Program-made: the position numbers and the translations under genes
Assembly (NCBI GenBank): GCA_046154185.1
Contig: JBJXGE010000070.1
Coordinates: 129,935-193,934 of the forward strand
From: Planctomycetota bacterium
GTDB taxonomy: Bacteria > Planctomycetota > UBA8108 > UBA1146 > JAJFFE01
Length of the DNA: 64,000 nucleotides
Reading direction: 5' to 3'
Notes under the pieces: generated by a model
Database searches by the model: none
The model's input: only the letters and a program-made list of their open reading frames with translations
What the model was told of the DNA's origin: nothing
In this document: piece after piece, positions 34,650 through 62,609 of the stretch
How positions within the stretch are numbered: the stretch's first letter is position 1
How the letters are laid out: the number at the start of each line of letters is the position of its first letter

Positions 34650-35546
34650 TCAGAAGTTGACGCACCACATCAGCAGTATGCCGTCGCCGGCGGCGGTCGG
34701 CGCTGGCACGAACTTCCAGATCTCAAAAATCCCATCGCCGTCGCGGCCATAATGCGCGTCCCAAACTGTGTTCGCGAGGTAGCCGCCGATAATGATCGAC
34801 GCGGCGACATCGGTCGGAAAATGCTTGTCGTTTTCGACGCGCGTGAACGCCGTGTAGATGACGCCGCCATAGAGGGCGAGCTCGGCCGGCACGAACCAGA
34901 GACTCTGCGCGCGCAACCAGCGCCCCGAGACCACCGCGCCCGCCATTGCGCTCGCCACGTGCCCGGATGGAAACGAGCGATTCGACGGGTTCGCGCGCCC
35001 GCCGCGACCGGAATTATTGTTCGGTCGTTCGCGGCCGACGAGCGGCTTCAGAAGCTCTGTCGCTAGCACCGTCCACCCCACCGACTCGACGCCGACTTCG
35101 ACGAGTTCCAGCGCCGAATCCGACTCCGGCGGAAACACCGCCGCCGCGCCGGCCGCAACCAGCGGCGAACCCGCGAGCACCGCGGCGACGACATCGCCGT
35201 GACGACTGCCGCTCGACCCACCAACGGGACGGTCGCGCGTGAGCCGTCGCGAAATCCGATCATCCTCCTCGGCGAGAAACGGCAATGCCACCAGCGTCGC
35301 GATCGACGGCAAGTGTTGCGGATTGAGCGGTGAAGCCGCTGCGAGCCAAGGATCTGCCTGAACGTGCGCGGCGAGCCAGGATCGGTCGGTTGGTTCTGGG
35401 TTAGCGCGTTGCGGCGTAGCGCTGCAGCCGACGAAGGGCAGCGCGCTGACGAAAAACAAACACGCGACATCGCACCGGTTACTGAGTCTTGCGATCCAGT
35501 GACTCGCCCGACTCTGCTCTTTGCAGCTCGAACCCGTGTGCACCAA
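34650..35546 (-). CDS. PAP2-family (type 2 phosphatidic acid phosphatase-like) membrane phosphatase
   Basis: KPLVGRERP ... PSGH ... (SR..H) motifs. The start is probably an internal Met. Confidence 0.6.
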   Translation of the reverse strand: MVHTGSSCKEQSRASHWIARLSNRCDVACLFFVSALPFVGCSATPQRANPEPTDRSWLAAHVQADPWLAAASPLNPQHLPSIATLVALPFLAEEDDRISRRLTRDRPVGGSSGSRHGDVVAAVLAGSPLVAAGAAAVFPPESDSALELVEVGVESVGWTVLATELLKPLVGRERPNNNSGRGGRANPSNRSFPSGHVASAMAGAVVSGRWLRAQSLWFVPAELALYGGVIYTAFTRVENDKHFPTDVAASIIIGGYLANTVWDAHYGRDGDGIFEIWKFVPAPTAAGDGILLMWCVNF

Positions 35547-37113
35547 TAAATCCCCAGGGCGTTGTCAGATTATCGACGATTGCCAACGTCGCGATTCGGC
35601 CACGCAGGCTCGTTAGCTCCCAGCGAACTTCAAACGGCAAATTATCGCAACGGCCCGTCATGCGCCGATGGGCGCGCGGACCATCCCACAGTTCGATCGC
35701 GAGCTGTCCGGGATCATAGCCGCCGTGCACGAAGAATCGCAACTCGAGCGCGTCGTCGGGCACGAGGAAACACTGATACAAACGGCCAACATTGTCGTCG
35801 CCCTTCTTGCCGAAACTCGAAAGACGCCCCGCGCCGCGACCGCCGTAGACCAAGAACTGATCCGCGCCGTCTTCCGCGATCCAGCCGTCAAGACCTTGCG
35901 TGAAGTCGCCGTTCTTGAGCGCTCGTTGCTCGCGATCCGCACGCGCCGCGACGGCCGCCTCCGCTGCTGGCACTTCCCGCACGACATCCGCACACGGCGG
36001 TCGATCGTATGCAAAGCCGAATTCCGCGTGCGGACTTTCATCGCAGTATCCGAACCAAAATTCGCCGCCTGCTTGAAACGGCTCACGCAATTCGAAGTTC
36101 TCGATCGCCGGCCCGCCGGGAATCGGCGACTTCGTGCCCCAGTAAACGCGACGCCCGTTGGTGCGACAACGCACGCGACTGTCCCAGGTCCCTGCGCGCT
36201 TGAGCCAAAACTGCGCTTGCCAACGCCCGAGATGGCGCCAGGCGCCATCCGGCAGCGGCCAAACTTCGCTCGGCTCGACTTCGTCTGGCGAGATCGCGAC
36301 GACCAAATCACCGGCGAGCGTCTGATGCAACTCGGCCGCTGGGATCAGCGATCGCTCCATGAAGCCGTTGCGTCGATGGTCCGAGAACAACGCGTGCGCA
36401 CTCTCGGCGCGTTCCGCGAGCCAAAGATCCCGACAACGCGATTGGTTGCCCATTGTCGCCGTCAGTACGCACTCTTTGAGCGGTGCGCACTTCTCCGCGG
36501 CGAAAGTGCGCAAACACACGCGCCGCGGCTCTTGTTGATGGAGCGTGACTTCAATGATCGGGCGCGCGCCGTTGGCGAACTCCTCGACGTGAATCGCGAA
36601 GCGCAAGGCCGGACCGAACTCGGTCGTTAGCAATTCAGACGGCGGTATCGCGTCGGCGTCGACGGGTTGCGCGTCGACTTGCGACGACAAGCGAAACTGT
36701 TTGCCACGTTCGCCGTCCGCCGAACGCTCCAACTCCGAGAGTCCACGTTTTCCATCGACCAGCGGTTCGACCGCGATGTAATTGATCAGCGTGAATTTCC
36801 CGTTCTCTTCGTAGCCGACGCGCAACAATCCACGCGGACCGCCTTCGGGTCGGGCGTCCAGCGCTGCCGGATAGACAGCGACAACGATTCCGCCCCGCAC
36901 TCCGTAGATCGGCGGGTCGCCGGCCTTCATGGGCCGAATAAAATCCGCGGCCAGTGGACTCGCGAGGAACAAGCAACAAACGATCGCGCCAACCACGACG
37001 CGACTCGTCGTCGCGCGCCAACAACGCGTTTCGATTGCGAAGACCGCTGCGCGGTGTCGTTTCGCACGCTGGTTATGAACTGTCATCTGTCTCCCCCGAA
37101 AGGAATACACCAC
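35479..37113 (-). CDS. Hypothetical secreted protein
   Basis: A long ORF with a hydrophobic N-terminal segment VVVGAIVCCLFLASPLAADF. No recognisable domain. Confidence 0.45.
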   Translation of the reverse strand: MVYSFRGRQMTVHNQRAKRHRAAVFAIETRCWRATTSRVVVGAIVCCLFLASPLAADFIRPMKAGDPPIYGVRGGIVVAVYPAALDARPEGGPRGLLRVGYEENGKFTLINYIAVEPLVDGKRGLSELERSADGERGKQFRLSSQVDAQPVDADAIPPSELLTTEFGPALRFAIHVEEFANGARPIIEVTLHQQEPRRVCLRTFAAEKCAPLKECVLTATMGNQSRCRDLWLAERAESAHALFSDHRRNGFMERSLIPAAELHQTLAGDLVVAISPDEVEPSEVWPLPDGAWRHLGRWQAQFWLKRAGTWDSRVRCRTNGRRVYWGTKSPIPGGPAIENFELREPFQAGGEFWFGYCDESPHAEFGFAYDRPPCADVVREVPAAEAAVAARADREQRALKNGDFTQGLDGWIAEDGADQFLVYGGRGAGRLSSFGKKGDDNVGRLYQCFLVPDDALELRFFVHGGYDPGQLAIELWDGPRAHRRMTGRCDNLPFEVRWELTSLRGRIATLAIVDNLTTPWGFIGAHGFELQRAESGESLDRKTQ

Positions 37114-37362
37114 GTGTCATGACACGCAGTTGGACGAGACACTATGGCACCGAAACCGAGGGAAGGGAAGCCGTGAGCTGAGCGCGCGGGAATAGCCGAT
37201 ACGCGACTTTGTCCGAATTCCCAGCACGGGACTCCAGCCGTGCGTGCGTAAGCTCTGTACGCCGTCGTCGCATTTCCTTTAACGAAGAATAGACAAAGAA
37301 AATAAGCCAGAGGTTTTTGGCGCTCGCGACGCCAACGTCGCGAGCACCAAAGATTTTCATCG

Positions 37363-38244
37363 CTACGGAAGCTGAACCTCGTCGTCGAACTTGTAATCGC
37401 TATACGTGAAAACCGACGAGCTCATCTGCTGCTCGCCCATCCGCGACACCATCGTCTCTTTCACTGGCACGTAATACTTGCCGACGACTGCGTATTCGTT
37501 CTCGACCGTCACTGCAATCGTGCCCATGCCTTGAATCGCGATGTTGATCACTTGTTTCTTGAGTACGTACTGCCCCTCGTGCTCTGCGAATTCCGTCGTC
37601 ATCAAGCCCGCGGTCGGCGGACCCGCCTTCTTGAAATTCATTTCGAGACTCGCCGGCAGGCCTTGCGCGTTGAGCGTGACACTCTTGATGCCATCCAATT
37701 GATCGCCTTCACACACGATCTTCGTCTTGCCGTCGACGAGCACACTCGACAACTTGCAGCCGGAGAACTGGTCCGGCCAGCGCGTGTCGCGAAAGTGCTC
37801 TTCGAGCTTTTTCGCTTCCAAGCCCGCGCGCGCCGCGCTGCCGCGATCCGCCGCATTCGCGAACGACAACTTGCCGGCCTGGCCGTCCCAAGCGTAGTCG
37901 AACGCTCCTTCCGACGAAGTACCCATCGCTTCGGTCTTAAACGTCCCCTTCAGAGTCGCTTTCTTGAGCCCTTTCCGAGCGGCCATGTAGCTCAGCTCGT
38001 CCATCTTGTCGAGCAGCTTGGCGGTCTCAGGATCGGCGGTCCCGGGCGTTTTCTTCTCCGCCGCCGGGGGGGCGCCGTTGCCCGGTTTGAGGGTCTCCGG
38101 TTTCGCCGGCTCGGGCTTATTGACCGGCGGAATCGGCACGGGCTTCGGTTCGGCGGGCGGAGCCTGACCGACAACGATATGGCCCATCGCGAACATCCAG
38201 CCGGCGAGCAGCAGAAACATCACGGACCTGCGAATCGACATGCG
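37363..38244 (-). CDS. Hypothetical secreted protein with Pro/Lys-rich linker
   Basis: Start MSIRRSVMFLLLAGWMFAMG (signal), followed by a PPAEPKPVPIPPVNKPEPAKPETLKPG linker. Confidence 0.5.
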   Translation of the reverse strand, partial: RMSIRRSVMFLLLAGWMFAMGHIVVGQAPPAEPKPVPIPPVNKPEPAKPETLKPGNGAPPAAEKKTPGTADPETAKLLDKMDELSYMAARKGLKKATLKGTFKTEAMGTSSEGAFDYAWDGQAGKLSFANAADRGSAARAGLEAKKLEEHFRDTRWPDQFSGCKLSSVLVDGKTKIVCEGDQLDGIKSVTLNAQGLPASLEMNFKKAGPPTAGLMTTEFAEHEGQYVLKKQVINIAIQGMGTIAVTVENEYAVVGKYYVPVKETMVSRMGEQQMSSSVFTYSDYKFDDEVQLP

Positions 38245-38384
38245 GCCTCCAGATTCTCGGTTCAAAAGTGCGTTCAACAAGAAAGCCGCGCCATTGTATG
38301 GCGCGCCCCGAACGACAGCCACGCCAATAGGCGCCGCGCAGATCGCGGCTGCGTCGCGATCGCGCGATCTCGTAGAATCCGCGC

Positions 38385-39401
38385 ATGTCGTATTGGGGAC
38401 TCCTTTACAACGCGGCCGCCCATTCGGCGCAGCGTCGACGCGGCGCGCTCGAGACGCGAGCGTCGGCGCTCGCGCGCGCGCACGCGTCGGCGCCCGAAGT
38501 GCGCTGGATTCCGATCGCGGACCTCGATCGCGTGACGGAGATGCCAGCGCGTCTCATCGCAATTGGCGGCGATGGCACTGTGAATGCGGCCGCGTCGTGG
38601 CTCGCGCGCAAAGCCGACGCAGCCGCGCTGCGCAACGCGCCGCACCCCGCTATCGAACTCGGCATCGTGCCCGTTGGAACGGGCAATAATCTCGCGCGCG
38701 GACTCGCGCTGTCTCTCGATCCCGACGCCGCGCTCGAAGTCGCGCTTGGCTCGGGGCCGACGACGCCGCTCGACGCGCTGCGCTTTTCCAGCATCGGCGA
38801 CGAGCGTGAGTGGCTGTGCCTGCAAAGCGCCGCGCTCGGTTTTCCCGCGCGCGTCGCCGCGCGCTACGACTCGTGGCGCCGCCGCGCTTGGTTTCGCGCG
38901 CTCGCGCGCCCGACCGGTCCGTATATCTATCGCGTGCTCGCGGCGCTCGAACTCTTCGCGCAAGCGCGACGCCAATGGCGCCGCCGCGGCCTCGTCGAGA
39001 TCGCGATCGGCGACGCGTCGCGTCGCGAGTCCGCGATGGCGCTGTTCATCAACAACGAACGCTCACTCGGCGGCAACTTCATCCCGTGCCCCGCCGCTCG
39101 CATCGACGACGGCGCGTTCGACTATTGTCTCGTGCGCACGACGCGCGTCCGCGACTACGCTCACATCTTCAGCCGCGTCATCAAGGGCACGCACGTCGAA
39201 CTCACGACCGTCGTCGCGTGCGCCCAAAGCGCCGCGCCGGTGCGCTTCCAGTTTTCGACGCCGCTCACTCTCCTCGTCGACGGCGATCTACATAAAGGCG
39301 TGCACGGTATCGAGGTGCGGGTGATTCCGGGGTGCTTCCGGGTGCGGCGCGCGAGCAAGAAAAGCTCCGCCGGCCCTTCAGGCCGGAACCTCCCTTCTTG
39401 A
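38385..39401 (+). CDS. Diacylglycerol-kinase-family lipid kinase (YegS/BmrU-like)
   Basis: LIAIGGDGTVN and GIVPVGTGNNLAR are catalytic-domain motifs of this family. Confidence 0.8.
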   Translation: MSYWGLLYNAAAHSAQRRRGALETRASALARAHASAPEVRWIPIADLDRVTEMPARLIAIGGDGTVNAAASWLARKADAAALRNAPHPAIELGIVPVGTGNNLARGLALSLDPDAALEVALGSGPTTPLDALRFSSIGDEREWLCLQSAALGFPARVAARYDSWRRRAWFRALARPTGPYIYRVLAALELFAQARRQWRRRGLVEIAIGDASRRESAMALFINNERSLGGNFIPCPAARIDDGAFDYCLVRTTRVRDYAHIFSRVIKGTHVELTTVVACAQSAAPVRFQFSTPLTLLVDGDLHKGVHGIEVRVIPGCFRVRRASKKSSAGPSGRNLPS

Positions 39402-39900
39402 TCGTGACCCGGAGTAGGCCGCAGGGCCGGCCAACCCGACATCTCCCGGGGTAGGCCGCCGAGCCGGCCAACCCCGGGTTCATTCGGGAAAAGGATCCGG
39501 CCTGACAGGGCCGGCGGAAAGGCTATATCCCGTCGGGCCTTTCAGGCCCTCTCAGAAATCGGCGGCAGCGAATCGAACTTCGCTTGAATCGATGCGGGCG
39601 TGCGTTCGAAAACCTTGTGACCCAGATCATTCTCGTCCGCGTTGACTCCGTTGAACTCTTCGGGCCTTTCAGGCCCTCTCAGAAGGTGGAGGCAGTGAAT
39701 CCATCCTCGCGCTTGAATCCGCGCCGCCCGCGTTCGGAAGTTTTTCGACCCACAAGATTCTCGTTCTTGTCGGATCCTCTGAATTCTGAGGGCCTGCAAG
39801 GCCCGTCGGGTTAAAGCCCGGGGTTGGCCGGTCCGCCGGCCTACCCCGGGTTCGTTCGGAAAAGGGATCCGGCCTGAAAGGCCGGCGGAGAGTTGGGTCT
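39402..39900. repeat. Intergenic cluster of REP-like GC-rich palindromes with two divergent tandem ~128-bp units
   Basis: Units at 39535..39661 and 39662..39789 each begin with GGGCCTTTCAGGCCC, and a partial third copy lies at 39790..39804. A roughly 70-nt flanking element is present at 39450..39518 and 39821..39889, with its first 24-nt hairpin inverted between the two copies. There are many CCGGCC..GGCCGG hairpins. Confidence 0.6.
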
Positions 39901-40153
39901 AGAGCGGCATGCTCTCCAACGGATGAGATTGCATGCGAATACCGATCACGGTTTCGAGCTTCATCGAAAACTCTTAGGCAGAGACGGCTACAAAATCACC
40001 CACGTCTAGCACGACGCGGGCGGGAATCGAGTATTGACGTGCCCGAGCGCCGTCAGTCGACTAGACTATCGCGCCTTCGAGCGGTGCTCGACCGAGTCGA
40101 GGGTTTTTGAATTCCTACGGGCGGTGGTTTTCGCGTTGGGAAAGGGAGGCGGA

Positions 40154-42754
40154 ATGCTGAGACTCAGCCGAATGTTGTTGTTGGCCGGTGTCTGTTGCAC
40201 GATTTGCGCATTCACGAGTCCGGCGCACGCGCAAGGGGCCGGCACCACGGATGGCCGCGATATCATCGTCGGCGATCTGTATGACGTCGCTTCGTGGGGC
40301 GTTTCCGGCACGATCGCAGCGTTCTCGGTCGGCACGATCTCCTGCAACATCGGCGATGTCGCGGTGCCCTGGGTCGCATCGACGAACGAACATCCGGTCA
40401 TCGGGCAGAACATGTTTCGCCTCAAAGACGGCGTCATGGAACAAATCGGGCAAAGCTGGCTCAAGCATGGGTTCACGGCGTTGACGGGCACGACGTGCTC
40501 GGCCGGTTTGGGTGGCTGCACGGGGCCCGGCGGCTCGCAACTCAGTCCGGGCTGCTCCGATCCTTACTCCGCGGGTCTCAACGGTTCGCAAAGCAATCTC
40601 GGACCGCGCTCGCCGGTCAATGCCGCGACCGGATATTTCCCATACCCGTTCAGCGCGCCGTCGCCCGAGCCGGTGATCGGTCGGCGCTTGCAAGTCATCG
40701 TCGACGACCTGCTCCCGGCGCTCAATCCGGGAGCCGAGTACTTCGTGACGGGCCGCTACGTATCATCCGCGGATTCGGAGGACGAAAACGACAACAACAA
40801 TGTCTCGTACCGTCGCATCAACGTCGCGGGCACTTCGCCGTACACGATCTCGCTCATAGATTCGACTCAGCGGCAACTGACGGCGATCGACGCATGGCAG
40901 GATTCGCATGCGGATGTCGAAATCGACGTCATCGACATCAGCGGCGACGGACGCATCGTCCTCGGCACGCGCGTCATCGACCTCGGCGGCAATCAGTATC
41001 AATACGAGTATGCGATCTACAACATGACGTCGGATGCCTCGGTCGGGTCGTTCACCGTGCAAACGCCCCCGGGCACGTCGTTTTTGAGCACGGGCTTTCA
41101 CGCGGTGTTCTCACACAGCGGCGAGCCCTACTCGAACACTCCGTGGACGATCACGCCGGGCTCGACGAGCATCGTCTGGTCGACGCAGACGTTTTCCTCG
41201 AATCCGAATGCGAACGCGCTGCGGTGGGACAACATGTACAACTTCCGTTTCGTCACCGATCAGCCGCCGGTAGTGGGCAACGCCACGATTGGACTCTTCA
41301 AGTCGCCGGGCCAATTCACCGTTCAAACGCTCGTGCCGGATAACGGCACCATTTCGAACTTCTCGTGCGCCGTGAATGCGCAGGGCGTCCAACTCGACTG
41401 GCTCAACGGCACCGCGTTCACGACGATCGAGCTCCGGCGCAATGGCTCTAGCATCGCGACGTTGGCCGGCACCGCGCAGAGCTATCTCGATACGAGCGCC
41501 ACAGCGGGATTCAACCAGTACGAGGTCATCGGTTTCGTCGGCGCAGTGGCCGCGCCCGCCGCGGTCTGTGCGCTCGACGTACCCCAACCGCTCGTCGTGG
41601 CGTTCACGGGCGCGATTCCAAAACTCATCAGTGATCAAGGCGAAACGCTTGCGGTGACGATTACGCAGTTCAACGGCGGTGTGTACGCGTCCGGATCCGC
41701 GCAACTTCACGTCGATAGCGGCGCGGGTTTCGTGTCGACGCCGCTCATCGAGTCGCCGCCGCTCGCGTTCACCGTGAACTTGCCGGCGCTCGCGTGCGGC
41801 ACATCGATCGCGTTTTATGTGAGTGCGAACTCCACGCTCGGTGAGACCTTCACGGCTCCGGACGGGGCGCCGACGGTTGTGCACGAGGCGGTCGTGGCGA
41901 GCGCAATTGTGACGGAGTTCGCGGACACCATGGAGACCGACACCGGTTGGATCGTTGGCACGCCGAGTGATACCGCAACGACGTCGGGCATTTGGGTGCG
42001 CGAAGACCCGAATGGTTCCGCCGCTCAACCGGAAGATGATTCATCGGACGACGGCGCATTCGCATGGTTCACGGGCCAAGGCGCGCCCGGTGCGGCGCTC
42101 GGCGCGGCGGATGTCGATGGCGGCAGCACGACGCTGACATCGCCGGCGATCAATCTCGCGGGATCCGATAGTGCAGTGATCAGTTACAGGCGGTGGTTCT
42201 CGAACGACACCGGCGCGGCGCCTGGGCTCGACATCTTTGAAGTCGAAGTCTCGGCCGACGGGACCAACTGGGTGAACGTCGAGACGGTTGGACCGACCGG
42301 CGCCGAAGCGAGCGGTGATTGGTACTCGCACGAGTTTCGCGTCGCCGATTTCGTGACGCCGAGCGCTGCCGTGCGAGTTCGATTCCGCGCGAGCGACACG
42401 GGCGCGGCATCGATCGTCGAAGCCGCGATCGACTTCTTTGAGGTCAGAGACTTCGTGTGCGGCCCGCTCGGTGAGTCGTTCATGCGCGGCGACTGCAACG
42501 GCAGCGGGCTTCTCGACATCTCGGACGCGTCGTTCTTGCTCTCGCAACTGTTCGTGCCCGGTAGTCCGAGCGGCCCGTGCCAAGACGCTTGCGACGTGAA
42601 CGACGATAGCCTCGTCAACATCGCGGATGCCGTGTACACGTTGATCTACCTGTTCCAATTCGGCGCGAACCCGCTTCCGCCGTTCCCGGACTGCGCGATC
42701 GACCCGACGTTCGATGGCGTGAGCTGCGACAGCGTCCCGCCGAACTGTCCGTAA
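40154..42754 (+). CDS. Large secreted protein with C-terminal Cys-rich dockerin-like module
   Basis: Signal peptide MLRLSRMLLLAGVCCTICAFTSPAHA. The C-terminal 92 aa (nt 42476..42751) are FMRGDCNGSGLLDISD...CDVNDDSLVNIAD...PFPDCAIDPTFDGVSCD...CP. Confidence 0.7.
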   Translation: MLRLSRMLLLAGVCCTICAFTSPAHAQGAGTTDGRDIIVGDLYDVASWGVSGTIAAFSVGTISCNIGDVAVPWVASTNEHPVIGQNMFRLKDGVMEQIGQSWLKHGFTALTGTTCSAGLGGCTGPGGSQLSPGCSDPYSAGLNGSQSNLGPRSPVNAATGYFPYPFSAPSPEPVIGRRLQVIVDDLLPALNPGAEYFVTGRYVSSADSEDENDNNNVSYRRINVAGTSPYTISLIDSTQRQLTAIDAWQDSHADVEIDVIDISGDGRIVLGTRVIDLGGNQYQYEYAIYNMTSDASVGSFTVQTPPGTSFLSTGFHAVFSHSGEPYSNTPWTITPGSTSIVWSTQTFSSNPNANALRWDNMYNFRFVTDQPPVVGNATIGLFKSPGQFTVQTLVPDNGTISNFSCAVNAQGVQLDWLNGTAFTTIELRRNGSSIATLAGTAQSYLDTSATAGFNQYEVIGFVGAVAAPAAVCALDVPQPLVVAFTGAIPKLISDQGETLAVTITQFNGGVYASGSAQLHVDSGAGFVSTPLIESPPLAFTVNLPALACGTSIAFYVSANSTLGETFTAPDGAPTVVHEAVVASAIVTEFADTMETDTGWIVGTPSDTATTSGIWVREDPNGSAAQPEDDSSDDGAFAWFTGQGAPGAALGAADVDGGSTTLTSPAINLAGSDSAVISYRRWFSNDTGAAPGLDIFEVEVSADGTNWVNVETVGPTGAEASGDWYSHEFRVADFVTPSAAVRVRFRASDTGAASIVEAAIDFFEVRDFVCGPLGESFMRGDCNGSGLLDISDASFLLSQLFVPGSPSGPCQDACDVNDDSLVNIADAVYTLIYLFQFGANPLPPFPDCAIDPTFDGVSCDSVPPNCP

Positions 42755-42764
42755 CGATCCCGCG

Positions 42765-42838
42765 CTTTGCTGCGCCGACGCGCGGCGCAAAGTAGTTTTT
42801 TGGAGGCGCCCGATCTGGGCGCCTCTTTTCTTGTTTCG
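42765..42838 (+). terminator. Tandem intrinsic terminators
   Basis: Hairpin CTTTGC(T)GCGCCG-ACGCG-CGGCGCAAAG followed by TAGTTTTTT. A second hairpin GGAGGCGCCC-GATCT-GGGCGCCTC is followed by TTTTCTTGTTT. Confidence 0.65.
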
Positions 42839-42896
42839 AATCTGCGCCCCCGCCACCCCTTTGAACTCGCGCGCGCTTCGGGTCTAATCCGCGCCC

Positions 42897-43697
42897 ATGT
42901 CGGACTGGGTCGTCGCCATCATTTTGGGAATCGTCGAGGGCGTGACCGAGTTCATTCCGGTCTCGAGCACCGGGCACTTGCTCATCGCAGAGCATTGGCT
43001 CCCGCGGCAAAGCGACTTGTTCAATATCGTGATTCAGAGCGGCGCGGTGCTGGCAGTGTTGCCGCTCTTTCCGCAGCGGCTCCGCCAACTGTTGAACGCG
43101 TGGCGCGACGCCGCGGGACTCGACTATCTTCTGAAACTCGGCGCGGCATTCTTACTCACCGGCGTCGGAGGCATCGTCCTTTCGAAAGCCGGCTTCAAAC
43201 TGCCCGAGTCGCTGCGCCCGGTGGCGATCTCGTTGCTCGCCGGTGGCGTGCTGTTTCTCGTCATCGAACGCCGCAACGCCGGTCGTGTCGGCGACGCGCG
43301 CATCACGTGGACGATCGCCGTCGCCGTTGGCATCGCGCAACTCGTCGCCGCTGTATTCCCCGGGGCGTCGCGCTCCGGCGCCACGATCCTGGCGATGTTG
43401 CTCCTCGGCGCGAGCCGCCCCGCCGCCACTGAGTTCTCGTTCCTCGTCGGCATCCCCACTTTGCTTGCGGCGGGCGCACTCAAGATCTTTGACCACCTGA
43501 GCAACTCGACTCCGACCTCCGCCCCCGAGAATTGGCAACTCGTCGCGATCGGGTTCGTCGCATCGGCGTTGGTGTCGTTCGTCGTCGTGAAATGGATGCT
43601 GCGCTACGTCGAGACCCATTCGTTCGTACTTTTCGGTTGGTACCGCATCGCGCTCGGCGCCGGTCTCCTGGCCTGGTCGCTTGGCGTCGGGAGTTGA
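42897..43697 (+). CDS. uppP: Undecaprenyl-diphosphatase
   Basis: MSDWVVAIILGIVEGVTEFIPVSSTGHL is the canonical UppP/BacA N-terminus. Polytopic, 266 aa. Confidence 0.85.
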   Translation: MSDWVVAIILGIVEGVTEFIPVSSTGHLLIAEHWLPRQSDLFNIVIQSGAVLAVLPLFPQRLRQLLNAWRDAAGLDYLLKLGAAFLLTGVGGIVLSKAGFKLPESLRPVAISLLAGGVLFLVIERRNAGRVGDARITWTIAVAVGIAQLVAAVFPGASRSGATILAMLLLGASRPAATEFSFLVGIPTLLAAGALKIFDHLSNSTPTSAPENWQLVAIGFVASALVSFVVVKWMLRYVETHSFVLFGWYRIALGAGLLAWSLGVGS

Positions 43698-62379: not shown

Positions 62380-62609
62380 GTACCGATTCGCCTCTTTGGC
62401 GTCCTCCGAGGTTATCGGCTCGCCGCGGGCTATGACTGAAGCGACCCAGGATTAACCATGGGTTGACAGCGTCGCCGCGGCAGCGCAGAGTCCGCGGCCC
62501 TCGGCGTTCTGAGCGCCAAGGGCGCTCCCAAATGGAACGTGGGCGTCCCCCCGCTCCGGCGAAGGCGTCGCACGCGCGAGATTTCCGCTGGGATTGAGAA
62601 AGTCCATCC

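Follow-up and report, generated by a model that had tools for sequence, protein, structure and literature searches.

This locus raises a simple question: what is the odd 500-bp spacer that lies between a lipid kinase gene and the gene downstream of it? The DNA that we analyzed, referred to below as the window, is a 64-kb stretch from a Planctomycetota bacterium. A preliminary description, made from the sequence, had read the spacer as REP/BIME-like, and had also mentioned a small non-autonomous element, a structured regulatory RNA, and an invertible-looking flank. We conclude with considerable confidence that the region is a cluster of REP-type palindromes (REP/BIME-type), in which a composite unit of ~111 nt is present once in full and twice in part.

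The upstream gene (38385..39401, + strand) encodes a DAGK/YegS-type lipid kinase (Pfam DAGK_cat and YegS_C), which shows 100% identity to MFN0059906.1 (NCBI), a protein of a Planctomycetota MAG. A separate look-up by exact protein sequence drew no record for either flanking gene. The next-best kinase homologue, at locus L107, is 48% identical, so that the source MAG is without a close relative, and has a different synteny, with a convergent DUF2339 gene 42 bp downstream of it; because gene order is not conserved in this nearest homologue, there is no orthologous spacer to compare. The downstream gene (40154..42754, + strand) starts 263 bp past the cluster and encodes an 866-aa protein that is probably secreted, with a weak match to Pfam Dockerin_1 (E 0.003, under the curated cut-off). 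Two terminator-like hairpins with T-runs, at 39997-40022 (- strand) and 40087-40101 (+ strand), lie in the 260-bp gap before this gene and are outside the repeat family. Within ~±10 kb, the ORFs with Pfam matches encode acyl-CoA carboxylase subunits, a PAP2 phosphatase, BacA, an epimerase, and an MFS transporter. The large ORFs tested over this distance, which include three without a Pfam match, yielded no recombinase, integrase, or transposase. The stretch 34650-43697 is rich in lipid-carrier functions, namely the PAP2 phosphatase (34650-35546, - strand), the DAGK-type kinase, and the BacA undecaprenyl-diphosphatase (42897-43697, + strand).

The repeat cluster spans positions 39365-39890 of the window, and it starts within the final 12 codons of the kinase rather than at 39402, where the preliminary description had placed its beginning. 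It otherwise occupies the extragenic sequence between the two genes, and overlaps only the final 37 nt of the kinase coding sequence. That overlap (39365-39401) is the first part of the leftmost unit, U1; it encodes the last 12 codons and the stop of the kinase, and places one of the hairpins, P1, inside the coding sequence. The conserved domain of the kinase stops before the repeat, and the 18-residue tail, which is partly encoded by U1, is variable among homologues. Insertion of the repeat has probably remodelled the 3′ end of the kinase gene.

Base composition does not set the cluster apart (G+C 0.625 in the region and 0.626 in the 64-kb window). Folding does: 39365-39890 in full forms a single large, nested, imperfect palindrome, with fold z-scores of -10.6 (+ strand) and -12.5 (- strand). 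A two-hairpin unit of ~74 nt, consisting of palindrome A, a linker of ~17 nt, and hairpin B, occurs three times in the cluster. The three 24-mers that had been pointed out are present within 1-2 nt of the positions given for them, at 39413-39436, 39450-39473, and 39822-39845 (- strand), with no more than three mismatches each and an expectation by chance of 0.00. They had also been taken for inverted flanks, a reading that falls away, since each is a palindrome and a direct repeat of palindromes automatically scores as inverted. The direct repeat between 39445-39509 and 39817-39881 is likewise real, and only its length has to be amended, from 46 nt to 65 nt at 85% identity. The inverted 34-mers at 39445-39478 and 39817-39850 are 91% complementary, with 338 bp between them. 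Four inverted repeats, I1-I4, nest in order within the cluster, and one of them, I3, pairs the 39519-39551 region with 39788-39818 (31 nt, 87% complementary). Neither motif searches nor the covariance model R1 (described below) detected a second occurrence of the cluster motifs elsewhere in the 64-kb window.

The composite unit in metagenomes and in the window

A metagenome scan with the 24-nt palindrome (A) pattern returned 83 loci, the orientation of each being set by the GTAG/CAAC asymmetry. In 42 of the 83, the bases flanking the extended P2 stem are held in common, along with a wider P1-P2-CT-P3 context in fixed orientation, all of which lay outside the search pattern. The metagenome unit is ~111 nt long and comprises P1 (for example CAACCC-TTTCA-GGGTTG), a linker of ~24 nt, P2 (ACCCAGGGTAGGCCGC-N4-GCGGCCAACCCTGGG), a CT dinucleotide, a linker of ~9 nt, and P3 (for example AACGCC-TTCG-GCGTT). 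The window units align to this context throughout.

We aligned 37 metagenome copies, with the window sequence excluded (alignment A7), and built the covariance model R1 from A7 alone. In A7, 94.5% of cells are paired, 14 pairs show changes on both sides, and compensatory cells number 94, compared with 27.7 ± 3.9 in shuffles; when the 3′ partners were slid as a control, pairing fell to 29-48%. Almost all of the covariation comes from P1 and P3, neither of which was constrained by the search pattern, and the CT after P2 is invariant. Changes in the stems almost always alter both sides and keep Watson-Crick pairing, one-sided G-U changes being confined to a handful of cells. Such a pattern, poor in G-U pairs, is what one expects of a DNA palindrome and not of an RNA helix. 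R1 gave no match at E≤0.01 in a negative control of 727 kb, comprising 98 loci of unrelated GC-rich genomes, and Rfam gave no match in 20 family loci.

The ~111-nt unit occurs in many unrelated metagenome contigs, both as single copies and as inverted doublets. With R1, a second full copy that the pattern had missed was recovered in at least 15 loci, where the two copies stand in a "(-) then (+)" orientation, 10-25 nt apart. One such doublet, at L118, sits between convergent ORFs and folds as one long DNA hairpin (z = -10.6). Judged by its gene content, the L118 contig looks planctomycete; its permease gene has its best named homologues only in Planctomycetota. At L178/L184, the units are convergent and ~109 nt apart. 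The genes adjoining the units are unrelated in different contigs, and all-against-all clustering of the ORFs near units returned mostly spurious ORFs that read through the repeats.

Of the 106 loci returned when the genome collection was scanned for hairpin B, almost all are single chance matches in unrelated taxa; none has the three matches seen in the window, and none comes from the source genome. Only one of the 106 is related, L013, which belongs to a Pirellulales MAG and carries a 77-nt tandem array. This array (L013 7735-8000; CAVTEK010000010, ~239.7-240.0 kb) is a direct tandem array with a period of 77-78 nt that reaches the end of the sequence piece; its unit combines a CCGGCC-TTTCA-GGCCGG hairpin with a short CCCAGGG-ATTCT-CCCTGGG hairpin, which corresponds to the outer P2 stem without the GTAG core. 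Viral contigs scanned with the palindrome gave no matches.

R1 was run across the whole 64-kb window without filters. The complete three-hairpin unit (39782..39890, - strand), which consists of U3 (39817-39890) plus P3, is matched over model positions 1-111 of 111 with 63.6 bits (E 4.4e-11). Reading along the - strand, it contains P1 (CCGGCC-TTTCA-GGCCGG, 39885-39869), P2 (CCCGGGGTAGGCCGG-CGGA-CCGGCCAACCCCGGG, 39850-39817) with its GTAG and an A.A mismatch, the CT (39816-39815), and P3 (GGGCC-TTGCA-GGCCC, 39804-39790). U1 (39365..39438, + strand) is a partial and degenerate copy that R1 matches at 39370-39438 with 17.7 bits (E 0.08, model positions 6-77), and that aligns with the family in alignment A6. 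It has a P1 hairpin (CCGGCC-CTTCA-GGCCGG, 39370-39386, + strand), a 21-nt linker, and a GTAG-type palindrome P2 (39408-39437, + strand); its 39365-39425 portion is also matched by an HMM of the L013 unit (E 3e-5). U2 (39445..39518, - strand) is another partial copy, of mixed orientation: its hairpin order is that of a - strand unit (30.0 bits at 39445-39513 (-), model positions 6-77), with the P1-type hairpin CCGGCC-TGACAG-GGCCGG at 39497-39514, and the GTAG of its P2 (39445-39478) reads on the + strand (34.1 bits at 39442-39478 (+), P2 only). It is followed on the + strand by a CT, a linker, and a P3-type hairpin (39519..39551), together an inverted copy of 39788-39818 (I3); the hairpin itself (GGGCC-TTTCA-GGCCC, 39535-39549) doubles as the first hairpin of the tandem unit C1.

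The two outer units of the window are thus arranged convergently, P3 facing P3, around a 240-bp tandem-duplicated spacer and a nested partial unit. The three P2 copies are GC-rich imperfect palindromes of 30-34 nt, within the ~20-40 nt of REPs. All three carry GGGTAGGCCG...CGGCCAACCC, and in the complete unit P2 is followed by the CT. In the window units, CCCGGGG...CCCCGGG replaces CCCAGGG...CCCTGGG, a compensatory change that is also present in L123, L129, and L162. The best other R1 match in the window, at 62457-62532 (- strand) in another intergenic gap, scores 14.9 bits (E 0.3) and contains two hairpins, first a small one, GAGCGCC-CTT-GGCGCTC, and then GCCGCGG...CCGCGGC; this may represent a unit in decay, or just a terminator.

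The spacer between the outer units holds the tandem pair noticed previously as being about 70% identical, and this observation stands. C1 (39535..39661) is a 15-nt hairpin with a 112-nt body, C2 (39662..39789) is a 15-nt hairpin with a 113-nt body, and the two are identical at 92 of 129 positions (71%), with a body alignment score of 38 compared with -13 ± 5.5 for shuffles. The hairpin GGGCCTTTCAGGCCC opens each unit, at 39535 and 39662, and a variant of it, the third start already pointed out, closes the array at 39790-39804. The unit boundaries are therefore P3-type hairpins, the first of which is an inverted copy of the P3 and linker of the complete unit (I3). An identical 25-mer, TCGGGCCTTTCAGGCCCTCTCAGAA, opens both units (39533-39557 and 39660-39684), compared with 68% identity over the remaining ~112 nt, which suggests that the hairpin module is homogenized or constrained. 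The bodies are no more stably folded than shuffles (z -0.74 and +0.98 for C1, +0.04 and -0.70 for C2), and the comparison of C1 with C2 on both strands gave a single compensatory pair. The period of 127 nt is not divisible by 3, and ORFs across the units lack a Pfam match. No homologue of the C units was found in any of the 192 fetched loci, the C sequence has no second copy in the window, and the 23-mer with which the units start had no exact match in the metagenome scan. An apparent likeness to the L013 units, in a GATTCTC block, failed in an HMM search (E about 5). We infer that C1 and C2 arose by local tandem duplication of a "hairpin plus spacer" between two convergent units, a process comparable to the one by which units have multiplied in tandem in L013, L193, and L194.

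A linked Y1 transposase

Support for a mobile origin of the family comes from relatives in which the units flank a gene. In L129 (255-707) and L147/L192 (L147 4120-3668), a (-) copy and a (+) copy of the unit exactly frame a 151-aa ORF, and in L124 the same ORF is beside one copy, the other flank being at the contig edge. The ORF encodes a Y1 transposase (Y1_Tnp, PF01797, E 5e-22). When loci L193-L199 were fetched by means of two transposase proteins, using no DNA pattern, R1 units again flanked the gene, with the (+) copy beginning at the transposase stop codon. A Y1 HUH gene between inverted units, the arrangement that characterizes a REPtron, is accordingly found in the family at L129, L147/L192, L193, L194, L196, L198, and L199; the window has no such arrangement, there being no Y1 transposase gene in its 64 kb by tblastn.

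In the 20-kb stretches around the transposase genes, unit copies are found only at the gene flanks, and the family may therefore be only moderately abundant. Beside the transposase gene at L193 (9669-9963) and L194 (10456-10725), units stand in tandem, with two to three direct copies at periods of ~94 and ~161 nt, those of L193 being upstream of the gene; tandem multiplication of the module thus seems to be a general habit of the family. The transposase sequence P0145 occupies a single conserved locus across several samples. Homologues of the transposase number more than 7,900 at E<1e-20, many of them carrying the JGI label "REP element-mobilizing transposase RayT", and one homologue is labelled Verrucomicrobiae.

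In RAYTs, the signature NP(L/V)(R/K)xG adjoins the catalytic tyrosine (Nunvar 2010, PMC2817692). This signature is absent from the 151-aa protein, which carries HUH and YIxNQ motifs and reads YIENQEEHH (...VRQYIENQEEHHRK...) instead. The protein scores 22 bits against NCBIfam REP_Tyr_transpos (NF047646), for which the cut-off is 80, and 54.3 bits against transpos_IS200 (NF033573), for which the cut-off is 55. We regard the linked transposase as IS200-like by sequence and REPtron-like by arrangement, and not as a canonical RAYT.

Proposed origin and rival explanations

We propose that the units are non-autonomous DNA that would be copied in trans by a Y1 transposase. By analogy with characterized enzymes, the transposase would act on single-stranded DNA, recognizing the GTAG hairpin once folded and cutting at the neighboring CT; recognition and cutting at a GTAG hairpin plus CT have been demonstrated in vitro for the TnpA-REP proteins of E. 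coli and Stenotrophomonas (PMC8266576). The local cluster could then have grown by nested or tandem duplication, which would have given rise to the extra P2 and inverted P1 in the left arm and to the pair of 127-nt units that P3-type hairpins delimit. A secondary consequence of so many stacked GC-rich hairpins is probably that the kinase transcript is ended or stabilized, and insulated from the downstream gene. A dedicated regulatory role is not needed to explain the sequence.

Some of the same observations have been weighed in favor of other explanations. Folding of 39365-39890 as a single long hairpin (z -10.6 and -12.5), the ordered nesting of I1-I4, and the one other locus with convergent units ~109 nt apart (L178/L184) would suit a MITE of ~526 bp that moved as one piece, with the convergent units 39365-39551 and 39782-39890 as its long terminal inverted repeats and C1-C2 as its cargo. 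We consider this unlikely, however, given that no second C segment or 526-bp arrangement is present in the window, the 192 loci, or the metagenomes, that no target-site duplication is visible at the ends, and that the recurrent unit of the wider family is the 111-nt module or the divergent doublet. Less probable again is a structured noncoding RNA, which would either serve the downstream secreted-protein gene as its leader or riboswitch, in line with the regulatory RNA suggested in the preliminary description, or consist of two tandem hairpin-ended small RNAs corresponding to C1 and C2. The region is certainly highly structured, C1 and C2 share their first 25 nt exactly, compared with 68% identity in the rest, and two - strand hairpins (39885-39869 and 39514-39497) are terminator-like by score, each having a T-rich stretch after it. 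Yet no Rfam 15 family reaches its gathering score in the window (the best being MIR1151, with 31 bits against 90, followed by ar45, with 26.8 against 40) or any threshold in the 20 family loci, and the C bodies are no more structured than shuffles and share a single compensatory pair. In the family stems, nearly all variation consists of Watson-Crick double changes and G-U pairs are scarce, the units lie beside unrelated genes in other contigs, and 263 bp separate the cluster from the start of the downstream gene; together, these results speak against an RNA function.

The remaining alternative is a promoter switch, in which a site-specific recombinase would flip the ~340-bp segment between the inverted 34-mers and turn the downstream surface-protein gene on or off. 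The invertible-looking flank of the preliminary description hinted at such a switch, and the 34-nt arms, 91% complementary and 338 bp apart, do lie upstream of a gene for a probably secreted protein. The arms, however, are themselves palindromes within the 65-nt, 85% identical direct repeat, and one direct repeat of this kind scores as inverted too, so that the inversion signal is trivial, an artifact of the repeated palindrome. Moreover, the palindrome is a dispersed repeat elsewhere, in metagenome contigs. Given the palindromic arms, the lack of a recombinase or integrase among the large ORFs tested within ~±10 kb, and the lack of a promoter-like site in the segment between the 34-mers, an invertible switch is effectively excluded.

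The REP/BIME-like reading of the preliminary description, in contrast, has gained in substance, through the recurrence of the GTAG-tagged hairpin in a ~111-nt unit across metagenome contigs, its inverted doublets, and its position at the flanks of a Y1_Tnp gene; the suggestion of a small non-autonomous element holds along with it. On this REP-type reading, the odd 500-bp spacer is explained as ordinary selfish or semi-domesticated repeat DNA, and there is consequently no need to pursue it as a riboswitch, a small-RNA locus, or a phase switch. In practical terms, R1 provides a specific covariance model for a composite REP unit found in soil contigs, planctomycete-like ones among them, and could be used to mask or annotate such repeats in MAGs. 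A further idea, which we put forward tentatively, is that the three-hairpin module and the 151-aa IS200-like transposase without a RAYT signature might constitute a REPtron class, not yet described as such, that would be widespread among PVC bacteria of soil; an IS200-type enzyme would then have been domesticated separately here, and the 127-nt tandem units would be a copying by-product. The combination of an IS200-like sequence with a REPtron-like arrangement bears on how frequently Y1 transposases have been domesticated.

Relation to known systems

We file this DNA as REP-type in the broad GTAG sense, known within the source genome from one cluster in 64 kb. The mobilizing enzyme is not claimed as a canonical RAYT, because the transposase is IS200-like, scores under the REP_Tyr_transpos cut-off, and lacks the RAYT motif. 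An attC/integron identity, considered on account of the AAC/GTT bases in the palindrome, was dropped, as the palindrome lacks the right R''/R' geometry and neither cassettes nor an integrase are present.

GTAG REPs have been reported previously in the PVC superphylum, including Planctomycetes, as have composite repeats in which a GTAG unit is joined to unrelated stem-loops (Di Nocera 2013, PMC3733652). The determinants recognized by TnpA-REP are the GTAG at the foot of the stem, an irregularity in the stem, and the neighboring CT, and it is single-stranded REP DNA that is recognized and cleaved (Corneloup 2021, PMC8266576). Like such sites, the unit described here has a 34-nt GC-rich imperfect palindrome that carries GTAG at the 5′ foot of an irregular stem and has a CT on its 3′ side, and it is extragenic and clustered; unlike them, what is repeated is a fixed composite of ~111 nt with two small covarying hairpins, and not a bare REP of 20-40 nt.

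The window units also invite comparison with REPINs. These are reportedly doublets of REPs that form hairpins, a description credited to Bertels and Rainey in 2011. The metagenome units resemble them in being inverted, 10-25 nt apart, and in making up a hairpin-forming doublet of ~235 nt, an arrangement that equals the flanks of the transposase gene minus the gene. They differ in that each arm is ~111 nt, compared with ~20-25 nt for a bare REP arm, and the window units are convergent around a 240-bp tandem-duplicated spacer rather than a tight divergent doublet. The REPtron/REPIN arrangement has been described in several studies (Nunvar, PMC2817692; Di Nocera, PMC3733652; Bertels 2017, PMC5581495). 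As in REPtrons, inverted copies flank a Y1 HUH transposase gene in the relatives of our locus, and gene-less copies outnumber gene-linked ones, although the linked transposase has no RAYT motif and lies below the NCBIfam REP_Tyr_transpos cut-off.

The mosaic of REP palindromes in both orientations, with conserved linkers, extra stem-loops, and local tandem multiplication, recalls the BIMEs of E. coli and the "TIR" repeats of Pseudomonas, the latter combining a degenerate GTAG REP with unrelated stem-loops (Di Nocera 2013, PMC3733652), but there is no sequence similarity to the enterobacterial BIME or Pseudomonas motifs. Lastly, the family shares with IS200/IS605 elements a hairpin-based make-up and a linked transposase that scores near the IS200 cut-off and has the HUH and YIxNQ motifs, whereas it departs from them in that the flanking hairpin units are inverted and not direct, gene-less copies dominate, and P0145 occurs at a single conserved locus across samples.
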